From: Acidobacteriota bacterium
GTDB taxonomy: Bacteria; Acidobacteriota; Vicinamibacteria; Vicinamibacterales; UBA8438
DNA: 62,034 nt
NCBI GenBank assembly: GCA_022562495.1
Contig: JADFPE010000003.1
Span: 1 to 62,034 of the forward strand
Reading direction: 5' to 3'
Shown: in pieces, positions 32,252 to 62,019 of the stretch
How the letters are laid out: every line of letters begins with the position of its first letter
Numbering within the stretch: the first letter of the stretch is position 1
Made by a program: the position numbers and the translations under genes
The notes under the pieces: model-generated
What the model was told of the DNA's origin: nothing
The model's input: the letters and a program-made list of their open reading frames with translations, nothing else
Database searches by the model: none

Positions 32252-32409
32252 GGGTCCGGTCAAGAATACGTTCGCAATCTTGTGGGCGTCGAGGCGCCCG
32301 GCTGGTAAGACGCGAGGAGGGAGCATACCGGCAGTATTCGACCGACGAGTAACGCCACCAGATGGGATGGATCGGCGGCCGGAAATGTGAAGTTGTTCTT
32401 GACCGGGCC
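32252..32409 (-). repeat. family-A palindromic repeat (copy M)
   Basis: The plus strand carries GCGCCCGGCTGGTAAGACGCGAGGAGGGAGCATACCGGCAGTATTCGACCGACGAGTAACGCC. Copy-specific arms GGTCCGGTCAAGAATACGTTCGCA / TGTGAAGTTGTTCTTGACCGGGCC. Confidence 0.8.
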
Positions 32410-32420
32410 CCAACGTTCAG

Positions 32421-33200
32421 ATGCGTCGCGCCTACCCCCACGGCCCCGCCCAGTTCTCGTTCGGCCCGGGCATGATGACCCCAGCCGTGAAGTTGCTGAT
32501 CTGGGCCAACATCGGCGTCTTCGTGGCGGGCACCCTGATCCCGCCGCTGGGCCGTCTGCTCATCGACCTGTTCGGGCTCCGTCCGCAGGCGGTAGTCTCG
32601 GGGCTGCGGATCTGGCAGCCAGTCACCTATCTCTTCCTCCACGGCGGCTTCAGTCACATCTTGCTCAACATGCTCGTCCTGTGGATGTTCGGGGTGCAGC
32701 TCGAGCGTCTATGGGGGTTGCCCTACTTTCTGCGCTACTACTTCATCACGGGGATCGGCGCCGGGGTGGCGACGATCGGCGCGGGGCTGCTGCCGTTCGC
32801 CTTCAGCGAACCGACATACTTCGCGGTGACCATCGGGGCGTCAGGCGCCATTTACGGTCTGCTCATGGCGTTCGCGATCTACTACCCGAACACACCGATT
32901 CTGATGTTTTTCCTCTTCCCGGTACCGGCGAAGTACTTCGTGATGATCATCGGCGCCATCACGTTCCTGTCGGTGCCGCGCAGCGGCGGCGTTGCGCACG
33001 TTGCCCACCTCGGTGGGCTCGTCGTCGGCTATGTCTATCTGAAACGCAGCAGCGGCGGGGCCGGTCTGGGTCGCTTCGGCCGGTTCGGCGTGATGGCCGA
33101 GATCAAATACCGGTATTTACGCTGGAAGATGGGCCGGCTGCGCCGGAAGTTCAAGGTCTACCCCGGTGGCGGCGACGACTGGAACGGGCGAGTGCATTAG
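32421..33200 (+). CDS. rhomboid family intramembrane serine protease
   Basis: HGGFSHILLNM, GASGAIYG (catalytic Ser) and HLGG (catalytic His) motifs. Confidence 0.9.
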   Translation: MRRAYPHGPAQFSFGPGMMTPAVKLLIWANIGVFVAGTLIPPLGRLLIDLFGLRPQAVVSGLRIWQPVTYLFLHGGFSHILLNMLVLWMFGVQLERLWGLPYFLRYYFITGIGAGVATIGAGLLPFAFSEPTYFAVTIGASGAIYGLLMAFAIYYPNTPILMFFLFPVPAKYFVMIIGAITFLSVPRSGGVAHVAHLGGLVVGYVYLKRSSGGAGLGRFGRFGVMAEIKYRYLRWKMGRLRRKFKVYPGGGDDWNGRVH

Positions 33201-33207
33201 CGAGTGC

Positions 33208-33376
33208 TCTCAGAAGTCAGGAGGCAGAAGACAACTCGAGGCCGCCGCGGGTGTCACAGGCGGCAACGCCCAGAACCGCTCCGGGCTGCGGCCTACGTGA
33301 GCAGCAGGGCGGTGATAGAAGCTGGTGAAGCCTTCATTGTTCTTCTGACTTCTGACGTCCGACTTCTGACGTCTCA
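33208..33376. repeat. family-B heptad arrays in inverted orientation (convergent gene ends)
   Basis: CTCAGAAGTCAGGAGGCAGAAGACAAC (33208-33235) and GTTCTTCTGACTTCTGACGTCCGACTTCTGACGTCTCAG (33339-33376), flanking ~100 bp. Confidence 0.7.
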
Positions 33377-33744
33377 GCGGCTGCTCCGAGCCATTCCGAA
33401 CGAACCGGGCTAAACAGGTCGAGCTCGAACGTATCCGCGAGTGCCTCGGTCTGGTGCGGCACGCCGGAAGGAATCCGCACGACCTCGCCATCGCGCACAA
33501 GAACCTCCTCTCCATCGATCCGAACCTTCAGCATGCCGTCGAGCACGTAGGTCAGCTGCTCGCTCTCGTGGCTGTGCAGCGGCACGAGGGCGCCGCGCTT
33601 CAAATAGACCTGGACGAGCATCTGCCGGTCGCCGGCGACCACCTTGCGCGAGATCAACTCGGTGACCTTTTCCAGGTCGAGCTCGTCCCATCCGATTACC
33701 GAACCACCCGGCGCCGACGACATGCTCATGATTCCAGTTCTCAT
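33334..33744 (-). CDS. cupin domain protein
   Basis: GALVPLHSHESEQLTYVLDG...VVRIPSGVPHQTEA two-motif cupin signature. The C-terminal ETSEVGRQKSEEQ is encoded by the heptad array. The start is uncertain (M1/M6/M8). Confidence 0.75.
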   Translation of the reverse strand: MRTGIMSMSSAPGGSVIGWDELDLEKVTELISRKVVAGDRQMLVQVYLKRGALVPLHSHESEQLTYVLDGMLKVRIDGEEVLVRDGEVVRIPSGVPHQTEALADTFELDLFSPVRSEWLGAAAETSEVGRQKSEEQ

Positions 33745-33875
33745 GTAGATACAACGAGTTACATGGTGTTGCGTCGGCGGTCGTGGCAGACAACAGCCGT
33801 GCTATATAATTTACGCGCAATGCGGGCCACACGCCAACCGCCCGGAGCACTGCCGGCGCGCAGGACTCCATCATC

Positions 33876-36014
33876 ATGAAAGGTCCGACGGTCTCAGACG
33901 GTGCGAACACCGCGCCGCAAACGCAGCCCTATGAGGGGCTGTCGCGCGACGAGCTCCTCCGGCTGTATCGCACGATGTTACTGTCGCGGCGTCTGGACGA
34001 CAAGGAGCTCCAGCTCAAGAACCAGAGCAAGAGCTTCTTCCAGATCAGCGGGGCAGGGCACGAGGCGATCCTCGTGGCAGCCGGGATGCAGCTCAGGCCG
34101 GGCCGCGACTGGTTCTTTCCCTACTACCGCGACCGCGCGTTGTGTCTCACCCTGGGGCTGACGCCATACGAGATGCTCCTCGCGGCGGTGGGCGCGAAGG
34201 CAGACCCGACCTCCGGCGGGCGACAGATGCCGGCGCACTGGAGCAAGCCGGACCTACATCTCGTCTCCGCGTCGAGCGCGTGCGCCACCCAGTGTCTCCA
34301 CGCGGTCGGGTGCGCTGAGGCGAGCCAGTTCTACCTGCGGTTCCCGGACGTCGCCGCCGAGGCGGCCGCCTGCTCGGAGGGCGACGTCGTGTATGTATCC
34401 CTCGGCGACGGATCGACCAGCGAGGGCGAGTTCTGGGAGTCGCTCAACACCGCCTGCACGAGACGACTGCCGGTCGTGTTCCTCGTCGAAGACAACGGTT
34501 ACGCCATCTCCGTCCCGGTGGAGATCCAGACCCCGGGTGGCGACATTGCACGGCTGGTGTCGGCGTTCCCCGGGCTCGAGGTGATCCGCGTGGACGGGAC
34601 CGATGCGCTGGCCAGCTATGCTGCGATGCGTCGCGGCCTCGCGTATGCCCGCGGTGGACATGGTCCGGTGCTGGTGAAGGCCAGCGTCGTACGGCTGTAC
34701 TCGCACTCGATGTCAGATGACGAGCGCCAATACAAGAGCGAGGCGGAGCGCGACGAGGAACGCACGCGTGACCCGCTCGGCCGCTTTTCGGCGTTCCTGA
34801 CCCGCGAACAGCTGGGCAACGACAGCACCTTGGCGCAGATCGCGAGCGAGGTGGATGACGAGATCCAGGACGCGGCCGACCGGGCGGTGGCGGCGGCAGC
34901 CCCGGATCGATCCACCGTGCTCGACTACGTGTATTCGCCCGATGTGGACCCGGCCTCGGACGCGTTCGACGTCTCCGGTACGCCGGAGGGCGACCCGATC
35001 ACGATGGTCGCCGCCATCAACCGCACGCTCAAGGACGAGATGGCGCGGAACCCGCGGATCGTGGTGTTTGGCGAAGACGTCGCGGACTGCAGCCGGGCCG
35101 AAGCCTTGTCGACAGTGCAAGGCAAGGGCGGCGTCTTCAAGGCCACGCTGGGCCTGCAACGCGCCTACGGACGCGAACGGGTGTTCAACTCACCGCTCGC
35201 CGAGGCGAACATCGTCGGTCGCGCCATCGGGATGGCCCTGCGCGGGCTCAAGCCGGTCGTCGAGATCCAGTTCTTCGACTACATCTGGCCCGCCATGATG
35301 CAGATCCGCGACGAGTTGACAATGCTGCGGTATCGGTCGAACAACGCCTATTCCTGCCCGCTCGTGATCCGGGCGCCGATCGGCGGGTATCTGCGTGGCG
35401 GCTCGCTGTACCACAGCCAGTCGGGTGAGAGCATCTTCGCGCACTGCCCGGGGTTGCGGATCGCCTATCCGAGCGACGCCGCCGACGCCGCCGGTCTGCT
35501 CCGAACGGCGATCCGGTGCGACGACCCGGTCCTGTTTCTCGAGCACAAGCATCTGTATCGTCAGACCTACAACAAATCGATCTACCCAGGACCGGACCAC
35601 CAGATCCCATTCGGACGCGCGTGTGTTCAGCGGGACGGCACCGATGTTGTGGTGATCACCTGGGGTGCCCTCGTGCAACGGACGCTCATCGCGGCCGAGC
35701 GCGCCGCCCAGCGGGACATCAGCGTGATGGTGATCGACCTCCGCACTCTGGCACCCTACGACTGGTCTGCCATCGCCGAGGCGGTCTGCCGAACCAGCCG
35801 CGTCGTGGTGGCGCACGAGGACCACTTGACGTGCGGGTTCGGCGCCGAGTTGGCCGCGCGCATCGCCGATGAGCTCTTCGAGTATCTGGACGCGCCCATC
35901 AAGCGGGTGGGCGCGCTCGATTGCCCCGTGGCGTATCACCCGATTCTCGAAGAGGCGATCCTGCCGCAGACGGAGGACATCCTGCAGGTCATCACCACCA
36001 TCAGTGAATACTAG
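33876..36014 (+). CDS. 2-oxoacid (branched-chain/pyruvate-type) dehydrogenase E1 component, fused alpha+beta subunits
   Basis: 712 aa. The N-terminal half has the TPP motif ([15 protein letters not shown]). The C-terminal half is E1-beta-like (VFGEDV...[12 protein letters not shown]...). Confidence 0.9.
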
Positions 36015-36134
36015 CAGCCCCCCCCGTCACGTGGCTGTCAGAAAAACTTCTGCGAGCGAGGCTGCGCTCGTCGGTGTAAGGCGCCGTGTCGCCAGCAGCC
36101 CGTCGTCCGGACGTCCGGTTATGCTGGGGTCGAC

Positions 36135-37423: not shown

Positions 37424-37455
37424 GCGGTGTTTCCCGAGAGCGGGAAACGGCACTC

Positions 37456-38102: not shown

Positions 38103-38139
38103 GCCGACCGACCCACACCGTCGTCGCTACCGTCATCTG

Positions 38140-39916: not shown

Positions 39917-40175
39917 CACTTCAAGAAGTCAGAAGGCAGAAGAAAATCGGCGGCTACGCCAGCTTTCTTCAACCGTTTTTCAACAACGCTACTCTCGCCC
40001 GGGCCGGCGACCGTGCTGGTCCCGGCTCAACCTGGTCTCTCCCGCGTCCACGCCGAACCGACCCGGTCGGGGGAAACGTCCGGTAGCGCGAAGCACAACC
40101 CTGAACAGATAGTCGGCGACGCCCTTGAGCTTCCCCTGACTTCTGACTTCTGACTTCTGACTTCTGACTTCTGAG
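39917..40175. repeat. family-B heptad arrays in inverted orientation; right arm is a near-perfect 7-bp tandem repeat
   Basis: CACTTCAAGAAGTCAGAAGGCAGAAGAAAATC (39917-39947) and (CTGACTT)x5.7 at 40136-40175. Lies between the convergent atpF and nuoN. Confidence 0.8.
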
Positions 40176-40178
40176 AGC

Positions 40179-41657
40179 CTATTGCCCCCCCACCACCGTG
40201 GCGGCGGTAATCCCCTGGAGGGTGCGAGCGGCCACCTCGGCCTGCTCGAAGAGAAACTGCGGGTAGATCCCGAGCACGACCGTGCCGAGCAGCGCGACAC
40301 CGAGCGCGACTTTCATGGCGGGACCGATGACGATCGGTGACCCCACCGGCTCCTCCTGGTTGATCCACATGAAGACGACGACCCGGATGTAGTAGTAGAT
40401 CGACAATGCGCTGTTGGCGACGGCGATCACCGCGAGCCAGATGAAGCCGGCATCGATAGCGGCGCCAAACAGCCACATTTTGCCCATGAACCCGGCGGTC
40501 GGCGGGATGCCACCCAGTGACAACATGAAGAACCCCATCGCAAACGCGGCCAACGGGTTGCGCTTCGACAACCCGCTGAGGTCCTTCAGCTCGTCGCCGA
40601 TGATGTCGCTGCGACGCTGCGCCGTCACGATGGCGAACGCGCCGAGCTGCATGAACAGGTAGACCCCCAGATACAGGAGCATCGCGGCCACGCCACGCTC
40701 GGTGCGGACCACCACCCCGATCAGCAGATACCCGACGTGGGCGATCGACGAGTAGGCGAGCATCCGCTTCAGGTTGCTCTGGGTCAGCGCGGCAATGTTC
40801 CCGACCGTCATGCTGATCACGGCGAGCACGTAGAACAGCAGCGACCATTCCTGCGCGAGTGCCGGCAGTCCCACGACGAAGATCCGTAGCAGCATCGCGA
40901 ACGACGCCGCCTTGGACCCGACCGACAGGAACGCCGTCACCGGCGTCGGCGCACCCTCATACACGTCCGGCGCCCACATATGGAACGGCACCGCGGCGAT
41001 CTTGAACCCCATGCCGGCACCGACGAGGATCACCGCCAGCACGAGCACCAGGCTCGTGTCCTGCCCGCGCAACGCCGCCGCGATGCCCGCCAGGCTGGTC
41101 GTGCCGGTCACCCCGTAGATCAGCGACATGCCATAGAGCAGGATGCCCAGCGAGAACCCCCCGAGCAGGAAATACTTGACGGCCGCCTCGTTCGAACGCG
41201 GGTTCGGTTTGAGAAAGCCCACCAGCACGTAGAACGACACCGCCATCGTCTCGAGCCCGATGAACAGCGTGATCAGCTCGACCCCGCTCGCCATGAACAT
41301 CATGCCGACCGTGGCGCACAGAATCAGGAAGTAGTACTCGCCTACCCTGATCCCCTCGACCCGCAGATACGGCGCCGACATCAACAGCGTCAACGCGGCC
41401 GACAGCAGCACGATCACCTTGAAGAACGCCGCGAAGCTGTCGATCGCGAGCAGCCCGCGAGCCGCGGTCACATCGAGACCGAAGAACCTGACCACGAGCA
41501 CCAGCGTGACCGCCACGGTGGCGAGCGCCGTCCACAACAGCAGCCCGTCGCGCCGCGGCACCAGCACCGACAGCGACAGCAGCAGCATCGCGCCGCCGAT
41601 CAGCACCAGCTCGGGCAGGATGTAGAGGAAGTCGGCAGCGGAAAACCCGGCGGGCAT
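40179..41657 (-). CDS. nuoN: NADH-quinone oxidoreductase subunit N
   Basis: 492 aa, antiporter-like polytopic protein, last gene of the nuo operon. Confidence 0.93.
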   Translation of the reverse strand: MPAGFSAADFLYILPELVLIGGAMLLLSLSVLVPRRDGLLLWTALATVAVTLVLVVRFFGLDVTAARGLLAIDSFAAFFKVIVLLSAALTLLMSAPYLRVEGIRVGEYYFLILCATVGMMFMASGVELITLFIGLETMAVSFYVLVGFLKPNPRSNEAAVKYFLLGGFSLGILLYGMSLIYGVTGTTSLAGIAAALRGQDTSLVLVLAVILVGAGMGFKIAAVPFHMWAPDVYEGAPTPVTAFLSVGSKAASFAMLLRIFVVGLPALAQEWSLLFYVLAVISMTVGNIAALTQSNLKRMLAYSSIAHVGYLLIGVVVRTERGVAAMLLYLGVYLFMQLGAFAIVTAQRRSDIIGDELKDLSGLSKRNPLAAFAMGFFMLSLGGIPPTAGFMGKMWLFGAAIDAGFIWLAVIAVANSALSIYYYIRVVVFMWINQEEPVGSPIVIGPAMKVALGVALLGTVVLGIYPQFLFEQAEVAARTLQGITAATVVGGQ

Positions 41658-43258
41658 TATCTGGCGCCCCCGCGCACGGGAATCTCGATGACGTCAGAAA
41701 CGTCGCCGTCCAGCGCCGGCAGCTCGGCCGCGTCCTGGCCGTCGTCGTGCAGGACGTTGCGCGGCGGATAGACGCTGCTCACCCTCGCCATGACGCGGTC
41801 CACGGAGGTCTCGAGCCGGTCCAGGAACGGCTTCGGATACAACCCGATCCAGACCGCAAGAATCAGCAACGGTGCGAACGTCGCCCACTCCCGCAGGTTC
41901 AGGTCTGGCAGATGCTCGTTCTTCGGGTTATCCACCGTCCCCCACATCGTGCGCTGATACAACCACAACATGTAGGCCGCGCTCAGCACGATCCCGGTCG
42001 CCGCGAAACCGGCCCAGACCTTGTTGACCACAAAGATCCCCTGCAGGATCAACACCTCACCGATGAATCCGTTCAGTGTTGGCAGCCCGATCGACGACAT
42101 CGTCAGCACGAGGAACACCGCGGCATAGGCCGGCATGACCTTCGCCAGTCCGCCATACTCGGAGATCTCACGGGTGTGCCGGCGCTCGTAGACCACACCG
42201 ACCAGCAGGAAGAGCCCGCCGGTGGCGATCCCGTGGTTGATCTGCTGCAGGATGCTGCCGGTGATGCCGACCGGCGTCAGCGCGAACAGCCCCAGCATCA
42301 CCAGGCCCATGTGGCTGACGCTCGAATATGCCACCAGCCGTTTCCAGTCGGTCTGGGCCATCGCCACCAACGCACCGTAGATGATACCGATGATGCACAA
42401 TGCCACGACCCACGGGACGGCGTTCCGCGTCGCCTCCGGCAAGATCGGCAACGAGAACCGGATGAACCCGTAGGTGCCCATCTTCAGGAGCACGGCCGCC
42501 AGAATGACCGACCCGGCGGTCGGCGCGTCGGTGTGCGCGTCCGGCAGCCAGGTGTGAAACGGGAACATCGGTACCTTGACGGCGAACCCGAGGAAAAACG
42601 CCAGGAACACCCACGTCTGCAGCTCGATCGGCATGTTCAGCTCGTGGAACCGTGTGATGTCGAACGTATACACGCCGGTCACCTCGTGGTTATAGAAGTA
42701 GACCGCGAGGATGCCGAGCAGCATGATGACGCTGCCGACCAGCGTGAACAGGAAGAACTTGATCGCCGAGTACAGCCGGTTGGCGCTGCCCCAGATCCCG
42801 ATGAGGAAATACATCGGCACCAGCATGACCTCCCAGAAGACGAAGAACAGCAGGAAGTCGAGCGACACGAAGGCGCCGATCATGCCGGCCTGCAGTACAA
42901 GCAGGAAAATGTAGTACTCCTTGAGCCGCTCCGTGATCGCGGTCCAGGACGACAGCACCGCAATCGCGCCCATCAGGGTGGCGAGCAGGATCAACAACAC
43001 GCTGAACCCGTCGACCCCGATGAAATACTCGGCGCCAATCGACGGAATCCACTCGTGCCGCTCGACGAACTGCCAGTCCGGGCTGGTTGTGTCGAGCCAG
43101 AACCAGAGCGGCAGCGAGACCAGAAAGCCGAGCATGGCGAACCCGTTCGCGATCCAGCGGATGGCGTTCGGCTTGCTCACGAACAGCAGCACCCCTGCGC
43201 CCACCAGCGGCGTGAACATAATCAGTGACAACAGCGGAAAGTTGGCGGTGTTGCTCAT
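41657..43258 (-). CDS. nuoM: NADH-quinone oxidoreductase subunit M
   Basis: 533 aa, with the antiporter-like motif PFHTWLPDAH. Confidence 0.94.
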   Translation of the reverse strand: MSNTANFPLLSLIMFTPLVGAGVLLFVSKPNAIRWIANGFAMLGFLVSLPLWFWLDTTSPDWQFVERHEWIPSIGAEYFIGVDGFSVLLILLATLMGAIAVLSSWTAITERLKEYYIFLLVLQAGMIGAFVSLDFLLFFVFWEVMLVPMYFLIGIWGSANRLYSAIKFFLFTLVGSVIMLLGILAVYFYNHEVTGVYTFDITRFHELNMPIELQTWVFLAFFLGFAVKVPMFPFHTWLPDAHTDAPTAGSVILAAVLLKMGTYGFIRFSLPILPEATRNAVPWVVALCIIGIIYGALVAMAQTDWKRLVAYSSVSHMGLVMLGLFALTPVGITGSILQQINHGIATGGLFLLVGVVYERRHTREISEYGGLAKVMPAYAAVFLVLTMSSIGLPTLNGFIGEVLILQGIFVVNKVWAGFAATGIVLSAAYMLWLYQRTMWGTVDNPKNEHLPDLNLREWATFAPLLILAVWIGLYPKPFLDRLETSVDRVMARVSSVYPPRNVLHDDGQDAAELPALDGDVSDVIEIPVRGGAR

Positions 43259-43358
43259 GAGCAGCGTCTCGATTAACTGGACGGCGCCGCGCTTCGTCGA
43301 ACCCCGCGCGGCCTCGGGCGGGCCTACAGGCCGTTGCTACGACCGGCGCGCGCGGCGT

Positions 43359-45476
43359 CTACCCGACATACCGGGCAATCAGATACATGGTCACGAAGGC
43401 GAACACTCCGAAGAGCGTCGCCACGGCGTAGTTCTGGATCAACCCGGTCTGGACCCGGCGGAAGACGTAGCTCCCTTCCGTGCAGACCCAGGCCAGCAGG
43501 TTGAACATCCCGTCGACGAGGTACTTGTCAAAGACGTGCGAGACCCAGGCACACGCGCGGGTCAGCCAGCCGGCCCCGTTCACGGCGCCGTCGACGACGT
43601 GTCGGTCCACGGTCCACAGCCCGCGTGCGCTGCCTATGGTGCCCTTGATGGCGGTCGCGCCGTACAGCTCGTCGACATAGTACTTGTTGGTCAGCCAACG
43701 ATGGGCGCCGGCCCAGTGTTTCGCCAGCTGCTCGGACCGCTCCGGCCGCCGCACGTAAAAGTGATACGCCAGGGCGATCCCGGCGATGGCGATCAGCACG
43801 GAGAAGCCCATCAGCCCCCACTCGAGCAGGTGCGACTCGGCGTGCTCGGTCGCCTCGTGGGCCGCTCCGGCCGTGAAGCTGGGCTCGAGGAACGGCTCAA
43901 TCAGGTTCCGGAAGCCGAACGCCGCAGGGATCCCGACCAAGCCGGCGACACTCGCACCGACCGCCAGCATCCACAACGGCCCCGTCATCAGACCCGGTGA
44001 CTCGTGCGGCCCGTGCCAGGCATGCCCCTGGGCATCCGCGTCATGACCATCATCGGCAGCGGCGTGCGCCTCGGCGTGGTCCTCGCCCTCCTGATGGCCC
44101 CATGACGGCCCGCGATACTCGCCGAAGAACGTCATGAAGATGAGCCGGAACATGTAGAACGCGGTCATCCCGGCGGTCACCACCGCCAGCCCCCACAACA
44201 GCTTGTTGTTGAGGTACGTCCGGTAGAGGATCTCGTCCTTGCTGAAAAAGCCGGAGAACGGCGGGACCCCGGCGATCGCGAGCGACCCGACGAACATGGT
44301 GATGAAGGTGACCGGCATGTAGAGCCTCATGTTGCCCATCCGCCGCAGGTCCTGCTCGTCGTTCATGGCGTGGATGACCGACCCGCTGCCGAGGAACAAC
44401 AGCGCCTTGAAGAAGGCGTGGGTCATCAGGTGAAACGCGGCGGCGCCGAACGCGCCGACGCCGGTCGCCAGGAACATGTAGCCAAGCTGCGATACCGTCG
44501 AGTAGGCCAGCACCTTCTTGATGTCGGTCTGCACCAGCCCGATCGTGGCAGCCAGCAGCGCGGTCAGCACCCCGACCCACGCCACCACCTGCATCACCAT
44601 CGGGGCGTGCGAGAACAGCACGGCGTTCCTCCCGACCATGTACACGCCGGCCGTCACCATCGTCGCAGCGTGAATCAGCGCCGACACCGGCGTGGGGCCC
44701 TCCATTGCGTCCGGGAGCCAGATGTGGAGCGGAATCTGTGCACTCTTGCCCACGGCGCCGACGAACAGCAGGAGACAGATGGCCGACAGCACGCCGAACC
44801 CCCCTACTTCGACCGGCATCTCGGCCGCCGCCTCGGCGACGGCGCGGAAATCGAGGGTGCCGAACGTGAAGAAGATCAGGAAGATGCCGAGCATGAAGCC
44901 CCAGTCGCCGACCCGGTTGACGATGAACGCCTTCTTGCCGGCGTCCGACGCGCTCTGCTTGTGATACCAGAACCCTATCAGCAGATACGAGCAGAGCCCG
45001 ACCCCCTCCCACCCCACGAACATGACGAGGAAAGTGCTGCCGAGCACCAGCATCAGCATGAAGAAACAGAACAGGTTCAGATAGCAGAAGAACCGCGCGT
45101 AGGCGCCCCGCGACTCGTGGTCCATGTAGGCAACGGAGTACAGGTGAATCAGGAACCCGATGCCGGTCACGATCAGGATCATCATCCCGGACAGCGGGTC
45201 GAGCCGGAACGCCCACGGCACCTCGAACGCGCCGATCTCCCCGGACGCCGTCGCCAGCGGGATCGGCGGGATCCACTGCGCCACGGTGACGACATGCTCG
45301 CGATGCTCGGCGCCGAGCAGCTGATAGAACGCGCCGATTGACAGCAGCAGTGCCCCGCCCATCGTCACGCAGGCGACGCCGGCCGCCACCCGCTTGCTGA
45401 AGTAGCGCACACCCAGCAGACCGTTGAGGGCGGCACCGATGCCGGGCAGCAGAGGGATGAGCCAGATGAGATCCAT
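43359..45476 (-). CDS. nuoL: NADH-quinone oxidoreductase subunit L
   Basis: Starts MDLIWLIPLLPG (codon 22 of the ORF). PLHIWLPDAMEGPTPVSALIHAATMV. Contains a His/Asp-rich insert (HQEGEDHAEAHAAADDGHDADAQGHAWHGPH) before the C-terminal lateral helix. Confidence 0.93.
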   Translation of the reverse strand: MDLIWLIPLLPGIGAALNGLLGVRYFSKRVAAGVACVTMGGALLLSIGAFYQLLGAEHREHVVTVAQWIPPIPLATASGEIGAFEVPWAFRLDPLSGMMILIVTGIGFLIHLYSVAYMDHESRGAYARFFCYLNLFCFFMLMLVLGSTFLVMFVGWEGVGLCSYLLIGFWYHKQSASDAGKKAFIVNRVGDWGFMLGIFLIFFTFGTLDFRAVAEAAAEMPVEVGGFGVLSAICLLLFVGAVGKSAQIPLHIWLPDAMEGPTPVSALIHAATMVTAGVYMVGRNAVLFSHAPMVMQVVAWVGVLTALLAATIGLVQTDIKKVLAYSTVSQLGYMFLATGVGAFGAAAFHLMTHAFFKALLFLGSGSVIHAMNDEQDLRRMGNMRLYMPVTFITMFVGSLAIAGVPPFSGFFSKDEILYRTYLNNKLLWGLAVVTAGMTAFYMFRLIFMTFFGEYRGPSWGHQEGEDHAEAHAAADDGHDADAQGHAWHGPHESPGLMTGPLWMLAVGASVAGLVGIPAAFGFRNLIEPFLEPSFTAGAAHEATEHAESHLLEWGLMGFSVLIAIAGIALAYHFYVRRPERSEQLAKHWAGAHRWLTNKYYVDELYGATAIKGTIGSARGLWTVDRHVVDGAVNGAGWLTRACAWVSHVFDKYLVDGMFNLLAWVCTEGSYVFRRVQTGLIQNYAVATLFGVFAFVTMYLIARYVG

Positions 45477-45553
45477 ACTTAGTTGGGGCTTCGCCCCACA
45501 CCCCACGCGGTCGCTTGCGGGGACCCCAACGCCCCGCACCGCGCCCGGTCGTC

Positions 45554-45862
45554 CTACCAGCGCATCACGTTCATCTCGTCGATGTTCACGGTCTCCTTAT
45601 TCCGGAAGAACGCCAGAAGGATCCCGAGCCCGACCGCGGCCTCGGCCGCGGCCACCGCGATCACGAACACGACGAACACTTGACCCACCAGGTTCTCGAG
45701 ATGCCGGGCGTTCGCAACGAGGTTGATATTGACCGCGTTGAGTATCAGTTCGATCGACATGAAGATGATGATGATGTTGCGACGCACCAACACGCCGACC
45801 ACCCCGATGATGAACAGCGCGGCGGAGAGAAGTGCATAGTGCGCCGGTGTGATCTCCATCAC
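45554..45862 (-). CDS. nuoK: NADH-quinone oxidoreductase subunit K
   Basis: 102 aa, three TM helices, [10 protein letters not shown] motif. Confidence 0.95.
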
Positions 45863-45892
45863 GGCTCTGTCGTCTCCCAGTCGTCCAACGGG

Positions 45893-46408
45893 TTACAACT
45901 CACGCTTGGCCAACACGATGGCGCCAACCATGGCGACCAGCAGCAGCACCGACGCCACCTCGAATGGAATCAGATAGTCGGTGTAGAGCAGCCAGCCGAT
46001 CTGCTCGACATTGCCCTGGACCGGTGACGCCGCGGCGGCCGCCACCGGCGCCGACGGTTCTCGGCTGTAGCTGTAGACCACGATGCCGGCCAGCTCGAGC
46101 AGCACCGCCCCGGCCAGCGCCAACCCGACCAGACTGAGCCGCCGCGGGTCCTGGTGTGCCTCAGGATCGCGCTTCAGGTTCACCAGCATGACCACGAAGA
46201 GATACAGCACGACGATGCCGCCGGCATAGACCAGCACCTGGATCACTGCCAGGAACTCCGCCTCCAGGACGACGTAGATCACCGCCACACAGAGGAAGTT
46301 CATGACGAGAAACAGCACGCTGTGCACGGTGTTCGGGGTGGTGATGACCGCCACCCCCAGACCGAGGATCAGTGCCGAGAGCGTGTAGAAGACGATGGTT
46401 TCGACCAT
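45893..46408 (-). CDS. nuoJ: NADH-quinone oxidoreductase subunit J
   Basis: 171 aa, VYAGGIVVLYLFVVML motif. Begins 3 nt after the nuoH stop. Confidence 0.92.
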   Translation of the reverse strand: MVETIVFYTLSALILGLGVAVITTPNTVHSVLFLVMNFLCVAVIYVVLEAEFLAVIQVLVYAGGIVVLYLFVVMLVNLKRDPEAHQDPRRLSLVGLALAGAVLLELAGIVVYSYSREPSAPVAAAAASPVQGNVEQIGWLLYTDYLIPFEVASVLLLVAMVGAIVLAKREL

Positions 46409-46411
46409 GGG

Positions 46412-47449
46412 TTACAACAACCACACCTTCACGACGGCGGTCACCACGATGTTGGCAAGGGCGATCGGGATCAGGACCTTCCAGCCGATTCGCATCAACT
46501 GGTCGTAGCGGTACCGCGGCAACGTGGCCCGGATCCAGATGAAGAGGTACAGAAACACGAACATCTTGCCGAAAAACCAGACCCAGCTCGGGATCAGGTC
46601 CAGAAACGCCAGGTTCAGGAACGACAGCGCGCCGACGCTCGGGAACAGCGCGTCGACGCTCGGGAACGGTCGCAGCCAGCCGCCCCAGAACAGCGCAGTG
46701 ACCACCGCCGCGATGACGATCATGTTCGCGTATTCCGCCAGGAAGAACAGTGCGAACCGCATCCCGCTGTACTCCGTGTGGAACCCGCCCGTCAGCTCCT
46801 GCTCCGCCTCGGGCAGATCGAACGGGATACGATTGGTCTCGGCCAACCCGCCGATGAACACCAGCACGAACGCCACCGGCTGCACGAACCCGAACCAGAA
46901 ACCGGTCTCCTGCTGCGCCTCGACGATCCCCACCATGCTCAACGTGCCGGCGGTCAGGATGACGCTGACCAGCGTCATCGTGACGGCGATCTCGTAGCTG
47001 ATGAGCTGCGCGGCCGCTCGGAGACTCGCGAGCAGCGGGTACTTGCTGTTGGAGGCCCAGCCGGCCAGGATGATCCCGTAGACGCCGATCGACGTCACCG
47101 AGATGATGAACAGCAGCCCGACGTTGATGTCGGTGATGTAGAACAGCGCGTCCCCGCCGAACGGCACCACCGAAAAGACGACCAGCGCCGGCACCAGCGA
47201 CAGAATCGGCGCCAGGGTGAACATCCACTTGTCGGCCTTCGTCGGAGTGATGTCCTCCTTCAGGATCAGCTTGATCGGGTCCACGATCGCCTGCAGCACG
47301 CCCCAGGGCCCGACCCGCATCGGCCCGAGCCGTGACTGCGCCCACGCGATGACCTTCCGCTCGAGCAGGACCATGAAGGTGACCGACACGAGCACGCCGT
47401 TCAGCACCACCGCGATCTTGAACAACGGAATGATGACGAGGTCGATCAT
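46412..47449 (-). CDS. nuoH: NADH-quinone oxidoreductase subunit H
   Basis: Starts MIDLVIIPLF (codon 62 of ORF 46412..47632). LERKVIAWAQSRLGPMRVGPWGVLQ and FDLPEAEQELTGGFHTEYSGM motifs. Confidence 0.94.
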   Translation of the reverse strand: MIDLVIIPLFKIAVVLNGVLVSVTFMVLLERKVIAWAQSRLGPMRVGPWGVLQAIVDPIKLILKEDITPTKADKWMFTLAPILSLVPALVVFSVVPFGGDALFYITDINVGLLFIISVTSIGVYGIILAGWASNSKYPLLASLRAAAQLISYEIAVTMTLVSVILTAGTLSMVGIVEAQQETGFWFGFVQPVAFVLVFIGGLAETNRIPFDLPEAEQELTGGFHTEYSGMRFALFFLAEYANMIVIAAVVTALFWGGWLRPFPSVDALFPSVGALSFLNLAFLDLIPSWVWFFGKMFVFLYLFIWIRATLPRYRYDQLMRIGWKVLIPIALANIVVTAVVKVWLL

Positions 47450-47457
47450 CGCGAGGA

Positions 47458-47609
47458 CCCGGACGGAGATACGTGTGCCACGTCTGAACGTCGAGGCGCC
47501 CGCCCAGCAAGGCGCGAGGAGCGCGCATGCCGGGAGCATGTAAGCGACGAGCAACGCAGCTGGACGGGACGGATCGGCGGCCAGACTGGCACAGTTGTCT
47601 CCGTCCGGG
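47458..47609 (-). repeat. family-A palindromic repeat (copy N)
   Basis: The plus strand carries GGCGCCCGCCCAGCAAGGCGCGAGGAGCGCGCATGCCGGGAGCATGTAAGCGACGAGCAACGC. Copy-specific arms CCCGGACGGAGATACGTGTGCCA / TGGCACAGTTGTCTCCGTCCGGG. Fills 152 of the 163 nt between nuoD and nuoH. Confidence 0.8.
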
Positions 47610-47612
47610 TCT

Positions 47613-48734
47613 TCACCTGTCGACCTCGCCAATCACGACGTCGATGGTGCCGATCAGCGCCACCACGTCGGCGACCAGATGCCCGATGATCAGCGGCTTG
47701 AGCCCCTGCAGATTGCAGAACGACGGCGGTCGGACACGCAGCCGATAGGGGTTGGTCGAGCGTCCGTCGCTCACGATGAAATACCCGAGCTCGCCCTTCG
47801 GTGACTCGATCGCATGATACGTCTCACCCGCCTTCGGCTTGATGAGCCGCGGCACCTTGCCCATCACGGGGCCGTCGGGCATCCCGTCGACCGCTTGGCG
47901 GATGATGCGAAGCGACTGCCGGAACTCCTCCAGCCGGATGAGATACCGGTCATAGGTGTCCCCATTCGTGCCGAGCGGCACGTCGAACTCGAACTCGTCA
48001 TAGGCGGCGTAAGGTTCGTCTTTCCGCACGTCCCGGTAGACCCCAGACCCGCGTAGCGGCGGGCCACAGAGACCGAGTGCGGTCGCCGCCTCGCCGGAGA
48101 TCACCCCGATCCCGCGGGTGCGCTCGAGCCAGATCCGGTTGTTGGTGAGTAGCTCCTCGTACTCCGGAATCCTGGAGTCCATGACATCGCAAAACGCACG
48201 CACCTTGCGACCCCATCCGGTCGGGATGTCGAGCGGGAGCCCGCCGATCCGCATGCAGTTGTAGGTCAACCGGGCGCCACAGTACTCCTCGAACAGATCG
48301 AGAATGAGCTCACGCTCACGAAAGGCGTACATGAAGACCGTCATCGCCCCGATGTCCATGGCGTGCGTGCCCAACCAGAGGCAATGACTGGCGACCCGCT
48401 GGAGCTCGGCGAGGATGGTGCGGATGTATCGTGCCCGCCGGGGCACCTCCACCTCCATGAGCTTCTCGACCGTCTCGCAGTAGCCCAGGTTACTGGTGGC
48501 GGCGGAGACGTAGTCCATCCGGTCGGTCAGCAGGATGATCTGGGTCCAGTCCCGGTTCTCGGTCAGCTTCTCGATGCCCCGATGGATGTATCCAATGACC
48601 ACATCGGCGTCGACGACCCGTTCGCCGTTGAGCCGCAGGATCACGCGGAGCACCCCATGGGTGCTCGGGTGTTGCGGGCCCATGTTGAGGACCAGCTCGT
48701 CGGTGTCGAACATCGGCGCTGCTTCGATGGCCAT
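47613..48734 (-). CDS. nuoD: NADH-quinone oxidoreductase subunit D
   Basis: [32 protein letters not shown] and GEVDR C-terminus. Confidence 0.96.
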
Positions 48735-48889
48735 GACTCGCTGACCTCGCTAGGTGTGGCTCGCAGCCCGCGGCGAACGTCGCGCCGCATCCCGGCTGAC
48801 TCCGTTGCGTCCCGGTCGCATCCTGCGGATATTCTCCCTCGTCACGCCGTGTCCGCCGAGCTCGGCGTCGACCATGCACGGTGGATCGG
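48735..48889 (+). repeat. family-A repeat (copy O), preceded by a terminus fragment ending in CTAG
   Basis: GACTCGCTGACCTCGCTAG | ...CGCAGCCCGCGGCGAAC...GCATCCCGGCTGACTCCGTTGCGTCCCGGTCGCATCCTGCGGATATTCTCCCTCGTCACGCC... Occupies the whole nuoC-nuoD spacer. Confidence 0.65.
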
Positions 48890-49588
48890 CTATTCGATCT
48901 CCGTCTCGTCCGTCATGTTCCGCAACCGCAGCCACTCCATCGGGCTCTCCAACAGGTACTCGCCCGGCCCTTCGAGCGGGTAGTCCTTCCGTTGCGGATG
49001 CCCCTGCCAGTTCTCGGGCATCAGGATCCGGCGCAGATCGGGGTGCCCGGTGATCGTCACCCCGAACATGTCCCACAGCTCGCGCTCGAGCCAGTTGGCG
49101 GCCGGCCACAACCCGGTCACCGACGGCACCGGTTCGTCCTCGCCCGCCCGCACCTTGATGCGGACCCGGTGGCGGCGGCGGATGGAGTACAGACAGTAGA
49201 TGACGTCGAAGCGCTTCTCCCGCGGCGGCCAGTCGCTGGCCGTGACGTCCACGCAGTAGTCGAACGACCCTTCGTCCGACTCCTTCAGGAAACGGGCGAC
49301 GTCGAGCAGCGACGTCGGCGACACGATCACGGTCCAGTCGCCGACCCAGTAGCTGAGCTGCTCCACCGCTTCGGGCAACGCCGTCTGCAGCGCGACCAGG
49401 AACGGCGGCCGCTCGAGGTCGTCGGGTGGAGGCGGATCGGTCGGCCCCTTGGGGGCCTCAGGCGGCGCCTTGGGCCTGGGCTTGGGTCTGGGCTTGGGTC
49501 TGGGCGCCCGCGCGGCCGAGGCAGCCGGCGTCTGGTCGGCGGATGACGGGTCAGCCGTGTTGTCGCCCGGTTTCGTTTCGTCTGCCAT
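48890..49588 (-). CDS. nuoC: NADH-quinone oxidoreductase subunit C with Pro-rich N-terminal extension
   Basis: Core ...[10 protein letters not shown]...[34 protein letters not shown]. About 65 aa of N-terminal extension include [12 protein letters not shown]. Confidence 0.93.
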
Positions 49589-49624
49589 GGAACGGTGTGG
49601 TCACCCAGACACGTTGGCCGACTT

Positions 49625-49790
49625 CGAGCAGCCCGTGGTGAAAGTCCAGCTGCATTCGACCGGCGCTGCATCCCGCCTGTCTACGTTGCTCCTCGGTCAC
49701 ATACTGCCGGTATTTTCCATCGTCGCGCCTTGACAGACAGGCGCATCACCGGTCTCGGTGCAACGCTGGACTGTCACCTCGGACTGCTAG
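49625..49790 (+). repeat. family-A palindromic repeat (copy P, near-consensus)
   Basis: CGAGCAGCCCGTGGTGAAAGTCCAGCTGCATTCGACCGGCGCTGCATCCCGCCTGTCTACGTTGCTCCTCGGTCACATACTGCCGGTATTTTCCATCGTCGCGCCTTGACAGACAGGCGCATCACCGGTCTCGGTGCAACGCTGGACTGTCACCTCGGACTGCTAG. The terminal CTAG contains the nuoA stop. Confidence 0.85.
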
Positions 49791-50143
49791 ACCCAGTCCA
49801 GCGCGCCCTTGCGCCATGCGTATACGTAGCCAAGCACCAGGATGAAGAGAAAGACCAGCATCTCAATCAACCCGAACAGGGCCAGCTCGTCCATGATGAC
49901 GGCCCAGGGAAACATGAACACGGTCTCGACGTCGAAAATGACGAAGAGCATCGCAATCAGGTAATAGCGGACACTGTAGCGACCACGCGCGTCCGTGTCC
50001 GGCTCGATCCCGCACTCGTACGGCTCGAGCTTCACCTTGTTGTAGCGCGAGGACTGGACCAGCCCGGAGATGATCAGGGTGAAGATGGCGAAGCCGATCG
50101 CGACCAGCACGAACAGCATCACCGGGATGTATGCGTCAGGCAT
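49787..50143 (-). CDS. nuoA: NADH-quinone oxidoreductase subunit A
   Basis: 118 aa, with YECGIEP, FVIFDVE and YAWRKGALDW. Confidence 0.95.
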   Translation of the reverse strand: MPDAYIPVMLFVLVAIGFAIFTLIISGLVQSSRYNKVKLEPYECGIEPDTDARGRYSVRYYLIAMLFVIFDVETVFMFPWAVIMDELALFGLIEMLVFLFILVLGYVYAWRKGALDWV

Positions 50144-50429: not shown

Positions 50430-50658
50430 CTTGCAGCCGGTGGTGACAGTCCGGCGTCACACCGGTCCTCGAGGTCGACGCCGCGCACGACCCGTGCACG
50501 ACGTGAGGAGGGAGGAGACCGGCAGGATGTGACCCCGTTGCGCGACACGCCCAGCGCAGTCCCCTGCGGAGGCAGCGGCCTTCGGCAGGCTCGGGGCGTC
50601 GCAAGGGCATCGAGGGGCGCCACCTGAAGACAGCTGGACTGTCACCACGGGCTACGAG
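50430..50658 (-). repeat. family-A palindromic repeat, long variant (copy Q)
   Basis: Ends CTTGCAGCCGGTGGTGACAGTCC / GGACTGTCACCACGGGCTACGAG. The plus strand has the reverse core ...GACGTGAGGAGGGAGGAGACCGGCAGGATGTGACCCCGTTGCGCGACACGCC... Confidence 0.7.
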
Positions 50659-58895: not shown

Positions 58896-59026
58896 GGGCC
58901 AAGGGCATGCTCGAACACGCTGATCGGCCATACCGCGGCGACGACGTCCAGTGACCCGGGGAAGCGTGACCTCCCCCGAGCCTGTCCTTGTCTGCACCGC
59001 CGCCCGCCGAGTGGGCTCCACCGGTG

Positions 59027-59506
59027 TCACTCGGCGGCGACGATCAGAATCATGTCGAGGGCCGTCTTGTCGGCCGGTAGCTCCGTCTCGCCTGCCGGGT
59101 AGTCGTTGGCGTCGAGCAGATACGCCACGACGTCGGTGTACTCCTCGTCGGTGAGGCGGCCGGGCCCATCCTCCGGCATCGACACCCTGATCCGCTCAAA
59201 CAGCGTTCCGACCGGCAACTCGGTCCAGAACACGATGAAGTCGCTGCCGGCGATGCTGGGCGCCATCTCGCCACCCTTCAGTTCGGGACCGTGACACGAC
59301 TCGCAGTTCTGGGTGTAGACTCGGCGCCCGCGGCGCGCCTGCGCGGCGGTGAACACCCCATCGAGCACGGTGCTGGTCGTCTCCTGCAGACCGGCCAGGG
59401 CTCCCTCTGCGGTCGCGGCCGCGGCGGCGCTCTCGGTTGCCAGTCCGCTCACCGACGCCCACGCCAGCACCAGCCCGACACACCCTGCGGTCAGCATTCT
59501 CTTCAT
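59027..59506 (-). CDS. c-type cytochrome (monohaem, secreted)
   Basis: Starts MKRMLTAG after GGAGAGGAGAG. Signal peptide, a single CESCH haem-binding motif, and a downstream Met candidate (SMPEDGPG). Confidence 0.85.
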   Translation of the reverse strand: MKRMLTAGCVGLVLAWASVSGLATESAAAAATAEGALAGLQETTSTVLDGVFTAAQARRGRRVYTQNCESCHGPELKGGEMAPSIAGSDFIVFWTELPVGTLFERIRVSMPEDGPGRLTDEEYTDVVAYLLDANDYPAGETELPADKTALDMILIVAAE

Positions 59507-59689
59507 CCGTTCTCTCCTCTCCATCAGCCGAACAGACAGCCGATCCACGTCGTTCCCGTGTCATTCTGGCATTCCGAATCGGACCCAATCAACCCGCCGA
59601 CACCTTGGCGGAGGCAGGCGCCAGCAAGAATCATGTCCCGGTGGCCCGAGGCTCCGCATGCGTGGACCCCATGATATCGTTCCACCCTG

Positions 59690-61042: not shown

Positions 61043-61169
61043 AGGCGTCGCCAGCGTCTGTGTCACAGCCCGCGGTGCCCGCCACCAAGAGGGAACGCGA
61101 ACAGGACTCCCGACACCTGCTGCAACCGTCCCGGTCGGTCCCGACGCCAGTGATATCATCCTGGTAGCC

Positions 61170-61335
61170 CTAGCAGCCCGTGGTGAAAGCCCCGCTGCAT
61201 TCGAACGGCGCTGCATCCCGGCTGGCGGCGTTGCTTCTCGGTCGAATACAAGCCGGTATTCTCCCTCGGCGCGCCTTGTCAGCCGGGCGCATCGCCGTAC
61301 TCGGTGCGACGCGGGGTTTCACCACGGACTGCTAG
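61170..61335 (+). repeat. family-A palindromic repeat (copy R, near-consensus)
   Basis: CTAGCAGCCCGTGGTGAAAGCCCCGC...GGCGTTGCTTCTCGGTCGAATACAAGCCGGTATTCTCCCTCGGCGCGCCTTGTCAGCCGGGCGC...GCGGGGTTTCACCACGGACTGCTAG. Confidence 0.85.
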
Positions 61336-61432
61336 CAGCCCGGGGGTGAAGGTCCCGCCGCATTTGGCTGGTGCTGCATCCGTCCCGACGGCGTTGTTCC
61401 TCGGTCGAACACTGCCGGCATGTTGCCCTGCG
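61332..61432 (+). repeat. family-A repeat, left half only (copy S), abutting copy R through a shared CTAG
   Basis: CTAGCAGCCCGGGGGTGAAGGTCCCGCCGCATTTGGCTGGTGCTGCATCCGTCCCGACGGCGTTGTTCCTCGGTCGAACACTGCCGGCATG, then unrelated sequence. Confidence 0.7.
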
Positions 61433-61456
61433 TATCGGCGAGAGTGTGCGAAATTG

Positions 61457-61726
61457 GTGAGCATCGTGATAGGAACACTCACCGCACAGATCGCCGATTG
61501 CGTCGACGATACCGGCAGGGTGGACAGTTGCGGTGCTGGGAACCAGGTGGGTTTCGCGCTGGGCGCGGCGGGGATCTATGCCGCGATCGGTACCGCCATC
61601 GATGCGTTGATCCAGGGGCGGACTACGCTTTACGAAGCCCCTGCTGCGAGTTCAGCACGTCAGGATCGATTCGAAGGACGCCCAAGCTCCGCAATCAGCG
61701 CCCTGAGCGCAACGTTCAGTTGGTAG
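61457..61726 (+). CDS. hypothetical small Gly/Ala-rich (glycine-zipper-like) protein
   Basis: GTG inside ORF 61304..61726, whose 5' part is repeat-derived. GFALGAAGIYAAIGTAIDALI segment. Weak evidence. Confidence 0.3.
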   Translation: MSIVIGTLTAQIADCVDDTGRVDSCGAGNQVGFALGAAGIYAAIGTAIDALIQGRTTLYEAPAASSARQDRFEGRPSSAISALSATFSW

Positions 61727-61847
61727 CGATCGCCTGCGAAAGCCGGCAATCGGTGGCGAAAGTCCCGCGTCGCACACGAGCCGAGACCGGTGTGGCTACG
61801 GCCCGGTCTGTACCGGCTGATCGACACCGACCCATTCATCGGTGGGG

Positions 61848-62019
61848 CCTTAGTGGTCCCGGTCATAATTACGGTACCGCACCGAGGGTGGCGAGGCGCC
61901 CGGCTGGCAAGGCGCGACGAGGGAGCAAATTGGGGGATTTGTGACCGAGGAGCAACGCCGTCCAGGCGGGATGCATCGCCAGCCGAATGCTACCGTAATT
62001 ATGACCGGGGCCACTTAGG
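61848..62019 (-). repeat. family-A palindromic repeat (copy T)
   Basis: The plus strand carries GGCGCCCGGCTGGCAAGGCGCGACGAGGGAGCAAAT...GTGACCGAGGAGCAACGCCGTCCAGGCGGGATGCATCGCCAGCCGAATGC. It is flanked by a ~29-bp copy-specific inverted repeat CCTTAGTGGTCCCGGTCATAATTACGGTA / TACCGTAATTATGACCGGGGCCACTTAGG. Confidence 0.85.

Follow-up and report, generated by a model that had tools for sequence, protein, structure and literature searches.

The 62,034-nucleotide stretch of DNA analyzed here (contig JADFPE010000003.1 of an Acidobacteriota bacterium; hereafter, the window) carries a repeat, termed family A, which we interpret, with a probability of roughly 0.65, as a non-autonomous hairpin resembling a MITE (miniature inverted-repeat transposable element). 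In this interpretation, the element is approximately 160–165 bp long, has IS5-like targeting and a purine-rich apex, and is selected as a single-stranded hairpin of fixed polarity. Full-length copies were 160–170 nt, and each folded as a single long hairpin. Approximately 15 copies were found in the 62 kb by nhmmer and direct reading, corresponding to about one copy per 4–6 kb; a covariance model gave 11 matches in the window, and a core-box pattern gave 5, compared with 0.05 expected by chance. The copies fell in intergenic gaps (genes were called by codon-position G+C content, and the G+C content of the window was 57–72%). Several metagenome and metagenome-assembled genome (MAG) assemblies contained contigs 98.6–99.8% identical to the window; these and other contigs and loci are designated by L numbers. 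The NuoD-like protein of the window shared no more than 90% identity with its counterparts in GTDB species representatives, and all matches were to MAGs of the order Vicinamibacterales (Acidobacteriota). We take the source to be a soil Acidobacterium of this order, in which family A belongs to a large superfamily.

Structure and covariation of the hairpin

The element is a single long imperfect palindrome with four zones. From the outside inward, these are about 9 weakly conserved terminal bp, about 45 bp per arm in which the sequence is free provided that the arms pair, a conserved inner stem, and a conserved purine-rich apex. Median identity among the 8 full-length window copies was 0.43 in the arms and 0.72 in the core, and the values over 82 full-length copies from all sources were 0.37 and 0.71, respectively. 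Between 77% and 87% of left-arm positions paired with the right arm in copies 32246, 47450, 49624, 61169, and 61848, bearing out an earlier remark, made in a preliminary description of this DNA, that the arms are self-complementary within each copy. When folded as RNA, copies 32246, 47450, and 61848 gave z-scores of -5.2, -12.4, and -11.6, and when folded as single-stranded DNA, the check proposed in that description, they gave -3.3, -6.7, and -8.4.

Other parts of the preliminary description needed revision. The paired arms were not 20–30 nt but approximately 50–60 nt long, extending to a YTAG tetranucleotide on each side, and the arm types, described as unrelated, all fitted one covariance model with the weak consensus ends (C/T)TAG-G(T/G)G..CC(C)G. 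Arms that had appeared unique had relatives elsewhere: copy 61848 had a 94% identical paralogue with different flanks (L130) and relatives of 74–82% identity (L088 and L174). The outer arms of copies 32252 and 47455 aligned at 14 of 20 positions, with the differences matched on the opposite arm, and these two copies had an ATACGT/AGTTGT imperfection in common. The GAGTCAGCAGC arms of copies 10380 and 14192 extended outward to GTCGTGTCCCGAG/CTCGGGACACGAC. A conserved core was confirmed at every position listed for the family except 5223, where an approximately 100-bp derivative had arms without a core. Copies 28641, 29583, and 50430, listed with the canonical arm type, were degraded or atypical (z-scores of -1.7 and -1.1 for the first two).

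Compensatory change was analyzed in 113 matches to the covariance model (E < 1e-10, from 99 sources). In this alignment, which was fitted to the model and hence is tilted toward the structure, standard pairs occupied 90.0% of cells, compared with 63.7% after shuffling and 28–38% with the partners slid. Cells changed on both sides numbered 838 versus 262 in shuffled data, and none of 500 shuffles reached the observed value. With a 49-pair structure that included a 14-pair outer helix, 84.9% of cells paired, and 986 were doubly changed versus 332 in shuffled data; within the outer helix, all 14 pairs had changed on both sides and 82% of cells were paired. RNAalifold applied to a plain MAFFT alignment also found compensatory changes in 30 of 35 pairs. 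Between copy 61848 and L088, 10 pairs were doubly changed and 2 had single changes that still paired, and none was broken. Thus, of the three readings offered in the preliminary description, a long hairpin kept by compensatory change was supported by covariation, with 838–986 doubly changed cells versus 262–332 in the shuffles.

The strand designated core+ reads CAAGGCGCGA[C/G]GAGGGAGC ... GACCGA[G/C]GAGCAACGC. Beyond the positions of the search pattern, CAAGG, G96, G100, A191, C193, and G218 (alignment columns) were 87–99% conserved (98–112 of 113 rows). Column counts gave, for the outer part of the apex, G-C and C-G pairs, an AAC bulge on the 3' strand, G-C and C-G pairs, and a tandem G.A/A.G step. 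A central Watson-Crick pair surrounded by invariant purines covaried (G-C in 78 copies, C-G in 31, and other in 2). The inner part comprised a second tandem G.A/A.G step, two G-C pairs, two purine oppositions, and a conserved G.U pair (66 G.U and 30 G-C); a second conserved G.U pair was G.U in 51 and G-C in 8. The tip was a covarying 5–7 bp stem with a loop of 3–7 nt (one of 11 nt) and no fixed sequence. The G.A steps can form on the core+ strand alone. A K-turn at the apex was rejected on inspection, since the 3-nt bulge is two base pairs away from the G.A pairs and on their wrong side. In a search of Rfam 15 with gathering scores and at E <= 10, only a tRNA reached its gathering score, and the sub-threshold matches were chance miRNA hairpins.

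A speculative and rather unlikely extension of the proposal is that the apex, with its tandem G.A steps, covarying pair, AAC bulge, and one G.U pair, might be the recognition module of a strand-specific single-stranded hairpin. If so, either a single-stranded DNA or RNA intermediate would be recognized at the tip and cut at the base of a sequence-free stem, which would be an undescribed mobility mode for target-duplicating elements, or the core+ transcript would be an abundant, undescribed structured RNA of Acidobacteria.

Strand polarity and the origin of matched changes

In 69 of 82 copies, core+ was the more stable of the two strands (69 vs 12), with a median difference of -8.1 kcal/mol (p = 2e-11), and it was also favored when only the outer 30+30 nt were folded (59 vs 14, p = 6e-8). 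In accord with these findings, G.T-type oppositions outnumbered A.C-type oppositions (97 vs 34), and purine-purine oppositions outnumbered pyrimidine-pyrimidine oppositions both in the outer 35 nt (101 vs 33) and further in (121 vs 23). The preliminary description had noticed that T/C mismatches in the arms would be G-U pairs on one strand only; this was correct, and the bias is systematic. The orientation of copies relative to flanking genes, for which many copies were uncalled, was 6 sense and 6 antisense, and copy 47450, which lies antisense to nuo, still favored core+ (-110.6 vs -102.0). Because a double-stranded process cannot yield such a bias in oppositions, these results indicate that one strand of fixed polarity, core+, is kept foldable irrespective of host gene direction. 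The independence of this strand-specific fold from host transcription is the unexpected part of our findings.

A different role for the hairpin would be as a structured RNA at the level of the host, serving the host transcript in mRNA stability, processing, or stop-start translational coupling within operons. Copies do fill operon gaps: 4 intergenic gaps of the nuo operon, which encodes 11 subunits on the minus strand, are occupied, and the nuoD-nuoH gap was 0–5 nt before insertion. An orthologous copy at 32252 is more conserved than third codon positions (0.91 vs 0.77–0.85), a series of T-A, T.G, and C-G alleles described below lies on the sense strand, and ERIC and Correia elements have RNA-level effects (PMC3184786). 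However, the favored strand tracks the polarity of the element and not host transcription, as the energies of copy 47450 illustrate; orientation is unbiased; many copies are degraded or deleted with no visible consequence; unrelated subfamilies re-use sites; and no T-runs follow the hairpins. We regard a host-level role as quite improbable.

According to the proposed mechanism, element lineages would be selected for a single-stranded hairpin of core+ polarity, with the core+ strand serving as a transposition intermediate or as an element-derived transcript; matched changes may then arise stepwise through wobble pairs or in one event by fold-back template switching in replication. Candidates for both routes were found as polymorphisms. 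The pair 32306/32357 is T-A in the window and L208, T.G in L207, and C-G in L209–L216, indicating a stepwise path via a wobble pair on the core+ strand. Copy 47455 in L082, L083, and L085 differs from the window by a cluster of three changes (T>C at 47470, C>A at 47472, and G>C at 47473) that convert ATACGT to ACAACT, the exact complement of the opposite AGTTGT. This cluster bears the signature of a fold-back template switch; a less direct source might be ectopic conversion from another copy. Template-switch mutation is an established creator and repairer of stems (PMC8794818). Among compensated changes between related copies, double transversions exceeded double transitions (51 vs 28), an excess at odds with a route through wobble pairs only. 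Degraded copies also commonly had differences that were uncompensated. Family A is a natural experiment in how long stems stay paired during sequence turnover, with the wobble path and one-step templated change both caught as polymorphisms.

Part of these data also supports the view that neutral homogenization of DNA, by fold-back template switching or arm conversion, keeps the arms alike, the stem being functionless and the covariation a mutational by-product. The cluster at 47470/47472/47473 yields an exact complement of the right arm, double transversions predominate, the supposed target-duplication ends vary complementarily (GA..TC and TCG..CGA), and the mechanism is documented (PMC8794818, PMC8604942, and PMC13100816). 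Homogenization should nevertheless erase mismatches, whereas certain non-Watson-Crick positions persist family-wide, namely the AAC bulge, the G.U pairs, and the tandem G.A steps. It is also strand-neutral, whereas mismatches are biased toward core+ in both whole copies and outer arms, and the T.G intermediate allele shows a stepwise path. On this evidence, homogenization is an unlikely explanation of the stem.

Insertion sites, spread, and the search for a partner

The usual flanks of family A are CTA|G...C|TAG, and direct TTAG...TTAG flanks were present in seven copies listed (61848, L088, L090, L121, L138, L139:1847, and L195). IS5 duplicates Py-T-A-Pu, most commonly CTAG, followed by CTAA and TTAG (PMC5493358). 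Many family-A sites are stop codons preceded by C, as in nuoA, the E1 dehydrogenase gene, and atpB. These flanks and the unoccupied sites below show that the whole hairpin enters Py-T-A-G in one piece and comes to lie between two YTAGs; very often the target is a stop codon with its preceding C (C-TAG). The family thereby explains C-TAG stop codons as insertion hot spots in a high-GC genome. It consists of dispersed non-coding copies shorter than about 300 bp with terminal inverted repeats, direct target-site duplication, and presence/absence polymorphism, features by which bacterial MITEs are defined. The presence or absence of copies differed among strains of 98.6–99.8% identity, and one larger insertion was seen.

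Unoccupied sites were found at three loci. At atpB-atpE, the filled site in L220 reads CACCA[CTAG]-160-bp hairpin-[CTAG]TCACTCACACGGAGG, and the empty site in the window reads CATCAT[TAG]GGACAACGAC-TCACTCACACGGAGG. At the nuoD-nuoH site of copy 47455, ...GACAGA TAG (0–5 nt) ATG or overlapping genes were found in 14 of the 16 closest species, and the spacers of L011 and L015 (25 and 14 nt) contain no arm-like palindrome; the gaps of more distant species were uninformative, being filled by tandem repeats and hairpins of unrelated kinds. Copy 32252 has no counterpart in L224 (CCGTGGTACGATA-GTTATCCA-ATG) or in L222 (GTGGTACGAT-(26 nt)-ATG), both of which have a short, non-palindromic spacer at its site, and L220 has an orthologous element directly after GTGGTACGATA. 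Since the empty sites lack a palindrome, the arms arrive together with the core. In the region downstream of the aminotransferase gene, synteny was lost in the GTDB loci.

IS1397 and ISKpn1 insert into REP palindromes, and the preliminary description had suggested a comparable origin for family A, in which a small mobile core would enter the loops of palindromes already in place. The private, self-complementary flanks of each copy give this impression only at first sight; the suggestion was refuted at the sites tested, since relatives have empty sites without a palindrome at 47455, 32252, and atpB-atpE. In addition, arms from different loci are homologous and terminate at YTAG, the core encodes nothing, and the core-less derivative 5223 keeps its arms. 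Insertion into palindromes is accordingly scarcely credible.

Its third suggestion was fold-back copying of flanking sequence. The palindrome would then extend outward into host DNA, each copy drawing its arms from its own neighborhood; this view is nearly as hard to accept and must be considered very improbable. Template switching can extend inverted repeats (PMC13100816), and in L220 the CACCA with which the gene ends, just before CTAG, is by chance complementary to TGGTG of the element. However, most hairpins stop at the YTAG boundary, the arms are homologous between loci with different flanks (61848 and L130 being 94% identical), and the conserved left flank GTGGTACGATA at 32252 is not mirrored in the right arm. 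Fold-back templating was seen once inside the element, at the 47470–47473 cluster, and not for flanks.

Sites were also used repeatedly. The window and L075 carry elements of opposite polarity and different arms at the nuoA stop codon, and L002, L008, L082, and L083 have TAGTGTCCG or TAGCAGTC 'scars' after it. In L220, elements of other subfamilies (identity of 0.46 and 0.59) occupy the sites of copies 28641 and 29584. These data show that one genome harbors copies from many subfamilies, which are old and have diverged, and that orthologous sites in related species often hold different ones.

A core-only pattern matched at least 120 loci on metagenome contigs. Among the matches listed, 85 of 120 carried the core by nhmmer, and the readable full-length copies had it at the tip of a hairpin of approximately 160–165 nt, with arms that differed from locus to locus. 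A larger composite form (about 210 bp) was observed at L099, L102, L127, L158, and L188, in which the same apex hairpin is accompanied by a second small hairpin (..CCCTTCGGG..) and longer outer arms. In 80 orthologous nuo loci from other Vicinamibacterales species, there were 9 nhmmer matches in 1.5 Mb. Model matches numbered 6 in 20.8 kb of the 90%-related species L220, 1 in an 88% relative, and 0 in an 86% relative (L224). We conclude that the family is old, occurs widely in the order, and has bloomed in particular lineages. The only truly orthologous pair, 32252 and L220:9814, was 0.91 identical, compared with 0.77–0.85 at third codon positions of neighboring genes; 48 pairs were unchanged, 3 had a single change that still paired, 1 was doubly changed, and 4 were broken. 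This identity implies that change in place is slow, so that the arm types go back mostly to different source elements and the constraint on pairing must act mainly on propagating lineages.

Several observations weigh against the proposal that family A is an IS5-like MITE selected as a single-stranded hairpin. No transposase was found by Pfam among selected open reading frames (ORFs) of the window, including the stretch after 61335 and the low-GC window start, and a search of about 2.9 Mb of related DNA for inverted TA-G...C-TA ends 0.6–3.2 kb apart gave none with family-A ends. Target duplication points to a double-strand DDE mechanism, in which a strand-specific hairpin has no obvious role. 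The duplication length is ambiguous among 2, 3, and 4 bp, because CTAG is itself palindromic, and the end variants GA..TC (47455) and TCG..CGA (10380 and 14188) are complementary and not direct repeats; the outermost positions thus also behave as stem. Copy 49624 (also numbered 49627) is missing from strains L082 and L083, where CTAGCAGTC remains, but the junction looks like a deletion and not like a site that was never occupied: the left end survives over 9 nt and is joined at an AGTC microhomology. No internal promoter was apparent in the element, and GNRA or UNCG apical loops occurred in only 1 of 110 copies, which leaves the reading as RNA without positive support. Finally, metagenome copies were picked by core pattern, so that conservation at pattern positions is partly built in, and the orientation calls for flanking genes were crude, with 53 of 113 copies lacking a call.

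The end search also recovered chance pairs and two units whose ends are unlike those of family A, both on contigs that also carry family-A copies. One is a 1.4-kb IS701-like element (L117, 4714–6092). The other is a 658-bp unit (L120, 6341–6998) with TAGGGTGCGTC.. inverted ends that encodes a RAYT-like (IS200-type Y1) fragment.

Whatever its partner, family A adds a very abundant, uncharacterized repeat superfamily to a major, poorly studied soil phylum, and it will confound the assembly, binning, and intergenic annotation of Vicinamibacterales MAGs. If the element has a single-stranded intermediate, this would bear on how MITEs without conserved terminal repeats are recognized.

Individual copies and relation to known repeats

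Three full-length copies lie on the plus strand. Copy 61850 (61850–62018; 61848 above) has direct TTAG repeats at 61850–61853 and 62015–62018, arms at 61854–61890 and 61976–62014, a left apex box CAAGGCGCGACGAGGGAGC at 61908–61926, an apical hairpin at 61925–61942, and a right box GACCGAGGAGCAACGCC at 61943–61959. The copy at 47450–47616 (47455 above) fills the nuoD-nuoH gap, with ATACGT at 47469–47474 in the left arm opposite AGTTGT at 47593–47598 in the right arm. The copy at 32246–32414 (32252 above), which includes the polymorphic pair 32306-32357, lies between the conserved GTGGTACGATA motif and the rhomboid start codon. Four species have this motif (32239–32249) in conserved form upstream of the rhomboid gene, and it looks like an extended -10 promoter element; the copy would then be transcribed in the 5' untranslated region, in the core+ sense. 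Heptamer-like runs of TCAGAAG/CTTCTGA, as in CTTCTGACTTCTGAC, flank the rhomboid-cupin gap in inverted orientation (window 33200–33240 and 33330–33370; L220 10780–10950; L224 10850–10880) and appear to be a separate short-repeat family.

On the minus strand, the best-preserved canonical copy (61169–61337) reads CTAG-CAGYCCGTGGTGAAA ... TTTCACCACGGRCTG-CTAG. A truncated copy (61333–61423, minus strand) abuts it, with the CTAG in common, and begins a stretch, at least 700 bp long, that strain L217 lacks. This stretch, which also holds the truncated copy and copy 61848, contains an arm fragment (GGTGGCGAAAGTCCCGCGTCGCAC) at about 61750–61790. In L217 (99.1% identical; 2812–3382), CTAG at 61332–61335 is followed by about 90 nt and then an ispG-like gene in place of window 61336–62034; the ORFs of the latter stretch (at least 700 bp, running off the window) had no Pfam match. 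Another canonical copy (49624–49792, minus strand) immediately follows the nuoA stop codon (GTC TAG), and a minus-strand copy reduced to the core (48782–48860) occupies the gap upstream of nuoD. A long atypical copy (50433–50650, plus strand) has canonical-type arms and a core whose 3' half is replaced or expanded.

The full-length minus-strand copy at 14188–14356 has the ends CTCGTGTTCCGGG / CCCTGGACACGAG and a diverged inner left arm; a look-up of the protein encoded next to it, at 13094–14188, found no record. A copy with GTCGTGTCCCGAGTCAGCA.. arms and a degraded core (10372–10558, minus strand) ends in TCG..CGA in place of TAG..CTA and was not in the covariance-model matches listed at E <= 1. 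Also on the minus strand are a weak partial copy representing the right half of the core (12854–12988; found by nhmmer, covariance-model E of 0.059), a partial copy with the core only (19828–19909; found by nhmmer, reading, and the covariance model), and a degraded canonical-type copy (28639–28803; folding z-score of -1.7), at whose site the strain-level contigs L218 and L219 have an identical 259-nt intergenic gap. A second degraded canonical-type copy (TAGCAGTCCGTGGTGA.., 29581–29761, plus strand) had a folding z-score of -1.1 and 2–8 uncompensated strain differences. In the short derivative of about 100 bp (5223–5320, minus strand), the arms are still of canonical type (..CCCGTGGTGCACG / CGTGCACCACGGG..) and the inner segments GCACCGAG / TTCGAATGC are present, but the conserved apex is absent. 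The derivative follows a tRNA (5037–5109) and precedes a GC-rich hairpin with eight T's (about 5340–5367) that resembles an intrinsic terminator. After the stop codon of the E1 dehydrogenase gene (TAC TAG), window 36011–36110 reads CTAGCAGCCCCCCCCGTCACGTGGCTGTCAG, which may be a decayed canonical end missed by the model; a full element with quite different arms lies at the same CTAG in L220 (13598–13758).

The complex-I operon (40179–50143) contains A, B/C-like, D, H, I/J-like, K, L, M, and N genes, and E, F, and G were not seen in this stretch. The N-terminus of its second protein (233 aa) is rich in Pro and Lys, and strains differ there by an in-frame indel of 27 bp (49532). A 14-nt TCAGAAGTCAGAAG indel separates strains at 40174, and one strain has a 128-bp GC-rich insertion in the nuoK-like/nuoL-like gap (window about 45547; L083 4855–4982) that by eye is unrelated to family A. 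The first 2600 nt of the window have a lower G+C content (0.57) and a composition unlike that of the rest, with ORFs for a Ser/Thr protein kinase domain (85–852) and DUF6941 (2215–2598).

Among known systems, the ERIC/IRU elements of Enterobacteriaceae (127-bp imperfect palindromes) have a conserved central inverted repeat and, like family A, are long, imperfect, intergenic, co-transcribed palindromes with TA-containing flanks. ERIC-type MITEs have terminal inverted repeats and target duplications, and each of their ends carries a 5'-TA-3' motif (PMC3184786). Family A differs in its phylum, its far more diverse arms, its GA-rich non-Watson-Crick apex, and its strand-specific fold, which does not depend on host transcription. 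A canonical copy had no blastn match in 5,426 E. coli genomes, which gives no homology to ERIC, REP, or BIME, and none in plasmids.

Correia elements (CREE) of Neisseria, which have TA flanks, and bcr1 of the Bacillus cereus group are likewise non-autonomous, strain-polymorphic, and approximately 100–160 bp long. In bcr1, compensatory changes preserve double-stranded pairing in the RNA (PMC3184786). The terminal repeats of both are conserved, and bcr1 has 5-bp direct repeats; family A is the inverse, with a conserved apex and arms of about 37% identity. The REPIN/RAYT mechanism is not expected to duplicate its target. A REPIN is a hairpin-forming doublet thought to act as single-stranded DNA, and compensatory changes are common in its hairpin and spacer (PMC3116915). 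REPIN arms, which are REP sequences, are invariant and the spacer is variable, whereas in family A the reverse holds (arms 0.37, apex 0.71). No RAYT gene was found among the selected ORFs covered in the window, and the ends of the RAYT-like ORF in L120 are unrelated.

The CTAG and TTAG flanks of family A are tetranucleotides that IS5 duplicates; alternatives to a 4-bp duplication of the IS5 type are a 2-bp TA (IS630-like) and a 3-bp TTA (IS1031/PIF-like). Neither an IS5-like transposase nor matching ends were found in the window ORFs checked or in the 2.9 Mb of related DNA. The targets of IS1397 and ISKpn1 are palindromes and the inserting unit is an insertion sequence, whereas the empty sites of family A have no palindrome and its core has no ORF. 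Integron attC sites carry boxes at the base of the stem and occur near cassettes and an integrase, whereas family A is conserved at the apex and dispersed between housekeeping genes. Compensatory change in hairpins is thus already known from other repeats; family A differs in its inverted conservation pattern, its GA-rich apex, and its intrinsic strand bias.

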